UHGV virus genome: UHGV-0151101
Strand: one strand, 5' to 3'
DNA: 11,233 nt
Source: a virus
Part shown: piece after piece, positions 9,934 through 11,233 of the stretch
Numbering within the stretch: the first letter of the stretch is position 1
How the letters are laid out: every line of letters begins with the position of its first letter
Position numbers and translations under genes: made by a program
The notes under the pieces: model-generated
What the model saw: the letters and a program-made list of their open reading frames with translations, nothing else
Databases searched by the model: none
What the model was told of the DNA's origin: nothing

Positions 9934-10043
9934 CCAGAACTTGAGTGGTTTTGGGGATGGCGCGAATTGCAGCTGCAAGACAGCGATCGAGAAGATAAGC
10001 ACCTCGACGCGTCATGCGCCAAAGCCACTTAAAGGAGACCATC

Positions 10044-10349
10044 ATGGTAACCATTGTCTGGAAAGAATCCAAAGGTACGGCAAAAAGCCGCTACAAAGCT
10101 CGCAGAGCAGAACTTATTGCCGAGCGACGCAGTAATGAAGCACTGGCGCGAAAAATTGCGCTAAAGCTCTCTGGTTGCGTCAGAGCAGACAAAGCAGCAT
10201 CACTAGGAAGCCTTTGCTGCAAGAAGAAAGAAGAAGTCGTTCGAAAAAATAGAAGTATTTATTACAAAGATTCAAACCCATTAGGAAACAAAATACATGC
10301 AGTCCAAAAAATAAAATTGTACAGTAAACTACCGTACGGTGCTTATTGA
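10044..10349 (+). CDS. N: N-like early antiterminator, 101 aa, phage-21-type arginine-rich motif
   Basis: N-terminal GTAKSRYKARRAELIAERR matches the phage 21 N boxB-binding peptide as I recall it. AAAGGAGA ribosome-binding site 6 nt upstream of the ATG at 10044. Follows PL and nutL. Confidence 0.8.
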   Translation: MVTIVWKESKGTAKSRYKARRAELIAERRSNEALARKIALKLSGCVRADKAASLGSLCCKKKEEVVRKNRSIYYKDSNPLGNKIHAVQKIKLYSKLPYGAY

Positions 10350-10351
10350 GT

Positions 10352-10690
10352 ATGCTTATGGTGAAAAAGACTATTTATGTTAATCCTGACCGCGGACAAA
10401 ACAGAAAAGTATCTGATAGAGGTCTTACATCTCGAGACAGGAGGAGAATAGCGAGATGGGAAAAAAGGATAGCATATGCATTAAAAAACGGTGTAACACC
10501 TGGATTTAATGCTATAGATGACGGTCCTGAATATAAGATTAATGAAGAACCAATGGACAAAGTTGACAAAGCATTAGCAACACCATTTCCTCGCGATGTC
10601 GAAAAAATTGAAGATGAAAAATATGAGGATGTAATGCACAGAGTTGTTAATCACGCTCACCAACGAAATCCAAATAAAAAATGGTCATAG
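10352..10690 (+). CDS. Hypothetical protein, about 112 aa, in an AT-rich segment immediately downstream of N
   Basis: Complete ORF beginning 3 nt after the N stop (start ATG at 10352 or 10358 uncertain). Basic N-terminal half, acidic C-terminal half. Followed by a strong intrinsic terminator. No homolog recognised. Confidence 0.5.
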   Translation: MLMVKKTIYVNPDRGQNRKVSDRGLTSRDRRRIARWEKRIAYALKNGVTPGFNAIDDGPEYKINEEPMDKVDKALATPFPRDVEKIEDEKYEDVMHRVVNHAHQRNPNKKWS

Positions 10691-10712
10691 CCCACTTCGG
10701 TGGGTTTTTTAT
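10691..10712 (+). terminator. Intrinsic terminator (tL1-like) after the N-distal ORF
   Basis: CCCAC ttcg GTGGG followed by TTTTTTAT, immediately after the TAG stop at 10688-10690. Confidence 0.7.
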
Positions 10713-10823
10713 TGTCTGAACAAACCTAATTTACTACCGCAAGCCACGCAGTGAAATGGAGGTGACTTGTGTTGGTCGCCAGAAAATGAAATTAGGCAGC
10801 AAAACACTTATTTGAGGTGATAT

Positions 10824-10910
10824 ATGGAAGAAGAATTTGAAGAGTTCGAAGAGCATCCGCAGGATGTGATGGAACAATACCAGGACTATCCGTATGACTA
10901 CGACTATTGA
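10824..10910 (+). CDS. Candidate 28-aa hyper-acidic, Tyr-rich micro-protein
   Basis: AGGTGA Shine-Dalgarno sequence 4 nt upstream of the ATG. Hand translation MEEEFEEFEEHPQDVMEQYQDYPYDYDY. Shares an exact 18-bp initiation cassette with the next gene. Confidence 0.3.
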   Translation: MEEEFEEFEEHPQDVMEQYQDYPYDYDY

Positions 10911-11049
10911 TAAGAATCAATGGTGTGGACAATACGAACGACGACAATGATTGCCAGAGAACTTGGTAAACAGAACTACAAGGCTGCCTGATGGTGGCCT
11001 TTATTTTTGTCCGTAAATAATTTCATGCTTATTACAATCAAGGTGATAT

Positions 11050-11233
11050 ATGGAAGAACAAGCAAACAAGATTCTCGTAGAACTACTGCAAAAAGCCAGT
11101 AATGGAATAGACGCGGCTGTTTCATTTAGCCAGGCACAGATTCCTGATGTTGTTCATCAGTTGCTGCTATGGAATATGGTTGACAGTCTGATTAAAACAT
11201 TAATGGCCATTCTAACAATCCCACTGGTTTTCT
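11050..11233 (+). CDS. 5' part of a gene running off the window; encoded protein has a hydrophobic segment
   Basis: Same 18-bp cassette AGGTGATATATGGAAGAA. Open to the window edge: MEEQANKILVELLQKASNGIDAAVSFSQAQIPDVVHQLLLWNMVDSLIKTLMAILTIPLVF. Likely membrane-associated. Confidence 0.45.
   Translation, partial: MEEQANKILVELLQKASNGIDAAVSFSQAQIPDVVHQLLLWNMVDSLIKTLMAILTIPLVF

Follow-up and report, generated by a model that had tools for sequence, protein, structure and literature searches.

Why do two unrelated genes of one phage operon begin with the same 18 bases? The question is raised by the end of the window (the whole stretch of DNA that was analysed, 11,233 nucleotides of the virus genome UHGV-0151101), where the 18-mer AGGTGATATATGGAAGAA occurs at 10815–10832 and again at 11041–11058, both times on the + strand, heading first a 28-codon acidic ORF and then the gene of a hydrophobic protein. 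The original prediction took the two genes for a paired module of a small acidic peptide and a membrane protein, perhaps an exclusion or toxin-neutraliser pair. We consider a different account to be the probable one: the first copy is native to orf28, a micro-gene of phage lambda, the second has been grafted onto the membrane-protein gene, and the repeat marks a recombination joint, not a functional pair.

The duplicated cassette and its surroundings

The features to which the text refers are the following:

10014–10349, + strand: N antiterminator gene; arginine-rich motif of the phage-21 type, C-terminus variant
10346–10690, + strand: nun-like transcription termination factor gene, probable start ATG at 10352
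10689–10714, + strand: intrinsic-terminator-like hairpin and T run after nun (7-bp stem at 10689–10706, then TTTTATTG)
10719–10815, + strand: 3′-terminal relic of an N gene of the phage-21 type, 97 bases, ending ..IYYRKPRSEMEVTCVGRQKMKLGSKTLI*
10815–10832, + strand: cassette copy 1, exact match; apparently native to orf28, to which it supplies ribosome-binding site, ATG and two Glu codons
10824–10910, + strand: orf28 (homolog of lambda lambdap47), an acidic 28-aa micro-ORF overlapping the start of ral by 17 nt
10894–10991, + strand: ral pseudogene with a 103-bp internal deletion after 10933, between TGGACAAT and TGGGCAAT; 18-codon stub
10980–11009, + strand: terminator-like hairpin and T run (9-bp stem at 10980–11001, then TATTTTTG), spanning the ral stop codon
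11009–11040, + strand: spacer similar to the N 3′ end of HF4s, an allele of the P22 gene-24 type
11041–11058, + strand: cassette copy 2, exact match; initiation region of the orf28 type, apparently grafted onto the membrane-protein gene
11050–11233, + strand: first 61 codons of a two-transmembrane phage protein of 149 aa (phrog_3054), continuing past the window

An exact-match scan found the 18-mer exactly twice in the window; a third site is absent even if up to two mismatches are allowed, and in shuffled sequence the mean number of matches was 0.01, with two copies in none of 200 shuffles, so that the identity asserted in the original prediction is borne out. Its content is also as predicted, each copy consisting of AGGTGAT followed by ATG GAA GAA, that is, a Shine-Dalgarno sequence, a start codon and two Glu codons. 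We read AGGTGAT as a 7-nt complement to the 3′ end of 16S rRNA, and it is plausible that both copies are translation-initiation regions. The first base of copy 1 is overlapped by the TGA stop of the N relic; the cassette is therefore the junction of an N stop, a ribosome-binding site and ATG GAA GAA.

The region is the early-left (PL) operon of a lambda-like prophage. The N gene of the window matches the Pfam N_peptide family only weakly, below the curated cutoff, but antitermination protein N is annotated for it in phages mEp235 and mEpX1 (99% identical), where the arrangement of N plus Nun is likewise already annotated (99% identity); the nun-like gene matches phrog_5632, “Nun-like transcription termination factor”, over residues 3–114 with an E value of 9e-71. 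A terminator-like hairpin does precede copy 1, the “tL1-like terminator” of the original prediction; it follows the nun-like gene and is itself followed by the 97-base relic of N. Homology to the 3′ ends of the N genes of phage 21, CUS-3 and Escherichia coli T309 begins at this relic (10719), and seen over 10014–10815 the nun module looks inserted into an N gene at IYY codons. Between 10700 and 11233 no sigma-70-like promoter is predicted.

The first gene is lambda orf28

The ORF at 10824–10910 encodes MEEEFEEFEEHPQDVMEQYQDYPYDYDY, 28 codons with the translation given originally, and it behaves as a real coding sequence. Twelve of the 28 residues are acidic, with neither lysine nor arginine present, and the peptide is 100% identical to that of orf28 of phage lambda (lambdap47, NP_040623), which occupies 34271–34357 of the lambda reference genome, overlaps the start of ral (34087–34287) and is labelled a hypothetical protein in the record. 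The family is phrog_16060 (E value 7e-19 over residues 1–28 of 28); Pfam, NCBIfam and PADLOC returned no match to the peptide. A literature search on orf28 or lambdap47 returned strain tables and one table of CRISPRi essentiality, and no functional study. In the CRISPRi table, lambda orf28 is non-essential and dispensable for plaque formation (PMC10695390), and lambda strains deleted for orf28 and ral together exist and are viable (PMC2327257).

The sequence of copy 1 also stands at the head of orf28 in the genomes of lambda, phage 21 and CUS-3, as well as in 103 copies from phage contigs; in more diverged homologs of orf28 the initiation region is recognisably related to the cassette. The 103 copies, fetched by means of the 18-mer and comprising 19 unique sequences, provided a coding test among close relatives: every one is intact, ral-deleted alleles included, and 89 give an identical peptide, while outside the overlap with ral 12 sites vary, 11 of them at codon position 3 (for a single named position we calculate a binomial chance of about 5e-5 that 11 or more of the 12 would fall there).

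For greater depth, diverged ral genes were found independently of orf28 in Providencia, Kluyvera, Proteus, Erwinia, Pantoea and one unassigned contig, their products being 61–79% identical to Ral, and every such lineage has an acidic ORF of 22–30 codons upstream. Indels between these micro-ORFs are in frame; a peptide core F-(D/E)-(E/Q)-H-P-x-D-(D/V)-M-x-(Q/R)-Y-Q-D-Y is conserved across the lineages, and in seven deep lineages the sites that vary before the ral ATG number 19, 5 and 5 at codon positions 3, 1 and 2, respectively. In the C-terminal portion of the peptide, some of the conservation is imposed by ral, whose ribosome-binding site and first codons overlap it. Taken at the level of sequence, orf28 bears clear signs of a genuine conserved micro-gene under purifying selection across the Enterobacterales. 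In Kluyvera genomosp. 1 (L148, 1498–1694) ral is apparently frameshifted, with the N-terminal 50 codons and the C-terminal TTAMIARELEAQKQQAAN in different frames; the acidic ORF upstream is intact there and has a GTG start.

A scan of phage contigs anchored on orf28, with a degenerate pattern for the peptide core and independent of ral, returned 51 new contigs, in 47 of which a Ral-like ORF begins within the 3′ end of the micro-ORF. In the four exceptional contigs ral is cut down to its last few codons plus the terminator, and the acidic ORF is intact; this ral-less sample is small, consisting of one deletion common to several contigs plus L183. L179 and L208 on the one side and L210 on the other apparently have the same deletion junction, and between their micro-ORFs 10 of 81 nt are different, 8 being third codon positions; seven of the codon changes are synonymous and three conservative. 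Micro-ORFs without ral thus still diverge mostly synonymously, which argues, for this single lineage, that the peptide matters in itself. The locus in this lineage is composed as follows:

L179, 3435–3865 (also in L208 and L210), − strand: Lar-family gene, overlapping orf28-like ORF, ral 3′ remnant with terminator, and a 28-aa hydrophobic ORF, MISTGNYIFGWLVIGVLMGLGFIAGGNG

The gene directly upstream, which overlaps the start of the micro-ORF, encodes a member of the Lar family of restriction-alleviation proteins (PF14354, 36.6 bits against a cutoff of 28.6). As it is seen in one lineage, the association with Lar is a lead, and it hints at a link of the peptide with restriction alleviation. In another contig, L177, a zinc-finger-like ORF (..CPVCGHDFDPRTPVCH..) overlaps the start of the orf28-like ORF by 4 nt.

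A dead ral gene lies between the two copies

Two features between the cassettes had been overlooked, namely a ral pseudogene and a second terminator-like hairpin. The bases after the ATG at 10894 read MTTTIDKNQWCGQ, matching lambda Ral; alignment with the intact ral of CUS-3 and phage 21 reveals the deletion of 103 bp, which frameshifts the gene and is flanked by TGGACAAT and TGGGCAAT, two near-repeats. An intact protein of about 59–67 aa matching PF11058, by which the Ral family is recognised (CUS-3 Ral matches it at 4e-48), is not encoded in the window. The same allele in E. coli T309.Ta3 is annotated by PGAP as “antirestriction Ral family protein, frameshifted”. Seven sampled phage contigs have the 18-codon stub, and seven have the 226-nt spacing of the cassettes found in the window allele. 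The ral-deleted allele recurs in several phage contigs and many E. coli prophages, and orf28 is intact there. At the position equivalent to 10980–11009, a terminator is annotated in the record of phage 21.

Judged by where the sequences occur, the constant partner of orf28 is ral, both in the 47 of 51 new contigs and in all eight diverged ral lineages. In all eight, the orf28 stop lies 8–17 nt inside ral, and the ribosome-binding site of ral lies inside orf28. Folding of the orf28–ral leader pairs the two start regions with each other, with a z score of −1.87 that is not clearly beyond shuffled sequences and without compensatory changes; the argument for coupling of the two genes is hence one of geometry. 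Ral stimulates de novo methylation by EcoKI via HsdM's N-terminal domain and not by DNA mimicry (PMC12707154, PMC9410887); orf28 is not mentioned in either paper.

Matches to Ral in the genome collection are mostly 98%-identical lambda DNA in unrelated assemblies, two loci being informative. Ral is 98–100% identical in assemblies of Nocardioides, Paenibacillus, Shewanella, Pseudomonas, Bradyrhizobium and others (L126–L141, L144, L146, L147, L149); several of the contigs concerned are about 48.4–48.5 kb long, or tiny. Ral in these assemblies is almost certainly contaminating phage lambda DNA.

The second gene belongs to a mobile family of membrane proteins

The second gene was predicted to encode a hydrophobic protein running past the window, and so it does: in a near-identical E. 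coli prophage (L001, 3333–3782) the full gene encodes 149 aa with two hydrophobic helices and the same N-terminal 61 residues. The complete protein matches phrog_3054 over residues 1–149 (E value 4e-64), and its homologs fall into 516 clusters; among those listed, all are “hypothetical” and none has a Pfam domain. The protein itself has no match in Pfam, NCBIfam or PADLOC. An AlphaFold2 model of low confidence (pLDDT 64, pTM 0.44) is helical, with hydrophobic helices at about 33–68 and 106–125; it is in its N-terminal 45 residues and its C-terminal helix, WLKIWLAPKLYLIEYAASL, that the protein is conserved. The versions of CUS-3 (L002, 2425–2847) and Sf6 have the N-terminal ~40 residues and the C-terminal helix in common with that of L001 and the window, and their central transmembrane and loop region is replaced, which makes the membrane gene a mosaic in itself.

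The range of phrog_3054 includes Vibrio schitoviruses, phi92-like virulent coliphages, and phages of Pseudomonas and Rheinheimera. In Pantoea and some E. coli prophages the gene lies between the lysis genes and terminase, and in a Citrobacter prophage it lies in the early-left operon, without the cassette. It is a mobile accessory gene of many phages and many genome positions. Nothing in the neighbourhoods of distant members, those of phi92, a Vibrio schitovirus and Klebsiella phage RothC, pointed to a function.

The cassette as a switch point

A search for the cassette in other phages, suggested along with the original prediction, found it before an orf28 body 103 times and before a membrane-gene body 34 times among phage contigs. 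Two upstream contexts, the phage-21-type N end and the lambda type, join either body (41 and 40 contigs with orf28 only, 18 in tandem, 5 and 4 with the membrane gene only), and in both classes of genes these N-end contexts extend well past the cassette. A particularly close comparison is that of L068 with the tandem contig L063: the 200 nt upstream are 100% identical and the membrane gene is 96% identical, and what L068 lacks is exactly the inter-repeat unit. L068 has the variant base of copy 1 at cassette position 4, where the second copy of L063 has G, which confines the exchange to the cassette's last 14 bases.

Distant phrog_3054 genes begin with ATG AAC GAA CAA or ATG CAA GAA GAA, and their upstream DNA is unrelated. 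Because these starts differ and because diverged orf28 genes keep a related initiation region, the cassette is taken to be native to orf28 and to have been grafted onto the membrane gene; the crossover for the graft would have been at or near the shared third codon, GAA. The original prediction had itself allowed that the cassette might prove a remnant of one gene's 5′ end, duplicated by recombination and with no conserved frame downstream. Copy 2 does appear to be such a copied 5′ end, but the frames behind both copies are conserved in relatives.

The 45 nt before copy 2 (10996–11040) were compared with the 3′ end of N of HF4s, and 1.5% of shuffled sequences scored as well; the similarity is concentrated in 11009–11040, and the C-terminus concerned, ..KQRGKSIPAYYD, is that of P22-type N genes. 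With this moderate support, 11009–11040 is probably a degenerate relic of N that was brought in with the membrane gene. Derivation of HF4s by a simple deletion between cassettes was considered and rejected, as its N gene ends in the P22 type, homologous to the spacer before copy 2. Another mosaic joint was seen in the IMG/VR contig L087, in which the membrane gene contributes its first ~13 codons to a direct fusion with an N 3′ end of the phage-21 type (..GTAGAGCTACCGCAAGCCACGCAGTGA).

A model of the locus and its rivals

According to the account that we prefer, the 18-mer would be the end of N joined to the start of whichever gene fills the first slot after N. Copy 1 would stand in its native place, starting orf28, the 28-codon acidic micro-gene of lambda, which is presumably translated from a strong ribosome-binding site right after the N stop. 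Ribosomes translating orf28 would cross the ribosome-binding site and the AUG of ral before they stop 8–17 nt inside it, and by virtue of this position of its stop orf28 may gate the translation of ral by coupling. The peptide probably has an additional function of its own, possibly in restriction alleviation. The ral gene of the window has been lost by the 103-bp deletion, between microhomologies; with ral destroyed, orf28 alone survives of the two. Copy 2 would have originated when a phrog_3054 gene entered the slot after N and there gave up its upstream region and second codon for the initiation region of orf28; by a later unequal exchange the membrane gene, accompanied by a remnant of the 3′ end of a P22-type N, would have come to lie behind orf28–ral. 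As direct repeats, the two copies bracket orf28–ral, a unit that may be lost or gained by recombination over short homology. As no promoter-like site is predicted downstream of 10700, PL is presumably the promoter of both genes, with N allowing transcription to pass the two terminators. The order of events is ambiguous; genomes with N, cassette and membrane gene could have preceded the tandem arrangement or have arisen from it by deletion.

A two-gene module, be it a toxin with its neutraliser or a pair for superinfection exclusion, with identical initiation signals on both genes, would explain at once why the genes are adjacent, on the same strand and identically initiated in the window and in the 18 tandem contigs, and the 28-aa hydrophobic ORF behind the acidic ORF in one ral-less lineage is superficially similar to such a pair, although it is a different gene. 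The distribution of the two genes largely refutes this model. The membrane gene comes next after orf28 in 14 of the 88 copies that could be assessed, and its own copies co-occur with orf28 in 15 of 27 cases, the other 12 having no orf28 upstream; lambda and phage 21 have orf28–ral followed by ea10 and lack the membrane gene, and in HF4s N is followed directly by the membrane gene, orf28–ral being absent. Add to this that the membrane gene occurs in virulent phages and in the gap between lysis genes and terminase, that a ral gene and a terminator separate the two genes, and that neither protein matches a defence model in PADLOC, and an obligate module becomes highly improbable; orf28 and the membrane gene are neighbours by recombination and not obligate partners. 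Another alternative is convergence on an optimal ribosome-binding site followed by Met-Glu-Glu, without any recombination. The motif is indeed a strong match to Shine-Dalgarno; moreover, distant phrog_3054 genes start with ATG-NNN-GAA, so that only the nine upstream bases and codon 2 have to match. We find this scarcely credible all the same, since an identity of 18 in 18 is not expected by chance, the same N-end contexts precede both classes of genes well beyond the cassette, L068 and L063 differ by exactly the inter-repeat unit, and the spacer in front of copy 2 is similar to the 3′ end of N.

There remains the question of what orf28 itself is for. It may be merely a translated leader for ral, with a functionless peptide that is a decaying remnant in the window; all lineages retain the geometry of the ral overlap, the ORF is very small and can be dispensed with (PMC10695390), and strains in which it is deleted along with ral are viable (PMC2327257). 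This is rather unlikely, for the conservation is at the level of amino acids, with E/D exchanges and in-frame indels across ~35% divergence of Ral, all 103 sampled copies are intact, including those in ral-deleted alleles, and the predominance of synonymous change continues in lineages without ral. That orf28 is a functional acidic micro-protein beyond its role as ral leader, a conserved accessory of restriction-alleviation genes of phages, is itself somewhat doubtful, if worth entertaining: the peptide might modulate or chaperone the basic, zinc-ribbon-like Ral (and, in one lineage, the Lar-family protein), or it might act directly on type I restriction enzymes, or its acidic N-terminus might serve as a translation-sensing leader.

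Significance

With the graft as the preferred explanation of the repeat, the locus resolves into annotated elements and a well-known evolutionary process, lambdoid mosaicism, and is in this sense already known. Its annotation should name lambda orf28, a defunct ral, a hypothetical membrane gene of wide occurrence and a mosaic joint, and should not speak of a new module for exclusion or toxin neutralisation. The locus offers a very clean case of the swapping of accessory genes among lambdoid phages, in which an 18-bp initiation region reaching to the third codon is the crossover site, and natural genomes with and without the cassette-bracketed unit exist. What residual interest there is lies in orf28, selected across the Enterobacterales and tied to ral save in a few ral-less contigs; if its peptide is functional, an uncharacterised player would be added to the Ral system of phage lambda.

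Comparison with known systems

Compared with lambda orf28, the gene of the window has the same 28-aa product, ribosome-binding site, start, 17-nt overlap with ral and PHROG family; it differs in its surroundings, as lambda orf28 follows a spacer on the sieB side and that of the window the relic of a phage-21-type N 3′ end, and in its partner, the ral of the window being inactivated by the 103-bp deletion. The strongly acidic composition, the position beside an anti-restriction gene and early expression give orf28 a likeness to T7 Ocr and ArdA that goes no further than resemblance, 28 aa standing against more than 110. With translationally coupled overlapping pairs orf28–ral has the same geometry in common, the upstream stop lying past the downstream start and the ribosome-binding site inside the upstream ORF, but here the upstream partner is itself a conserved peptide and not an arbitrary leader.

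The full-length protein near-identical to that of the window matches the family phrog_3054 (with Sf6 gp34, CUS-3 ECRS218_0047, HF4s gp37 and phi92 gp220 among its members) from end to end, and helices conserved at the N- and the C-terminus enclose its two hydrophobic ones; an initiation region of the orf28 type, with Glu as second residue, is limited to those copies that occupy the post-N slot. As for the joint, it resembles the mosaic joints or boundary sequences of lambdoid phages, where homology likewise switches exactly at a short border sequence, in this case the 18-mer, and a feature “bsq5; boundary sequence” is recorded nearby in CUS-3. It differs from them in two respects: it includes the first three codons, so that two unrelated proteins have Met-Glu-Glu in common, and it is present in tandem, with orf28–ral bracketed by direct repeats.
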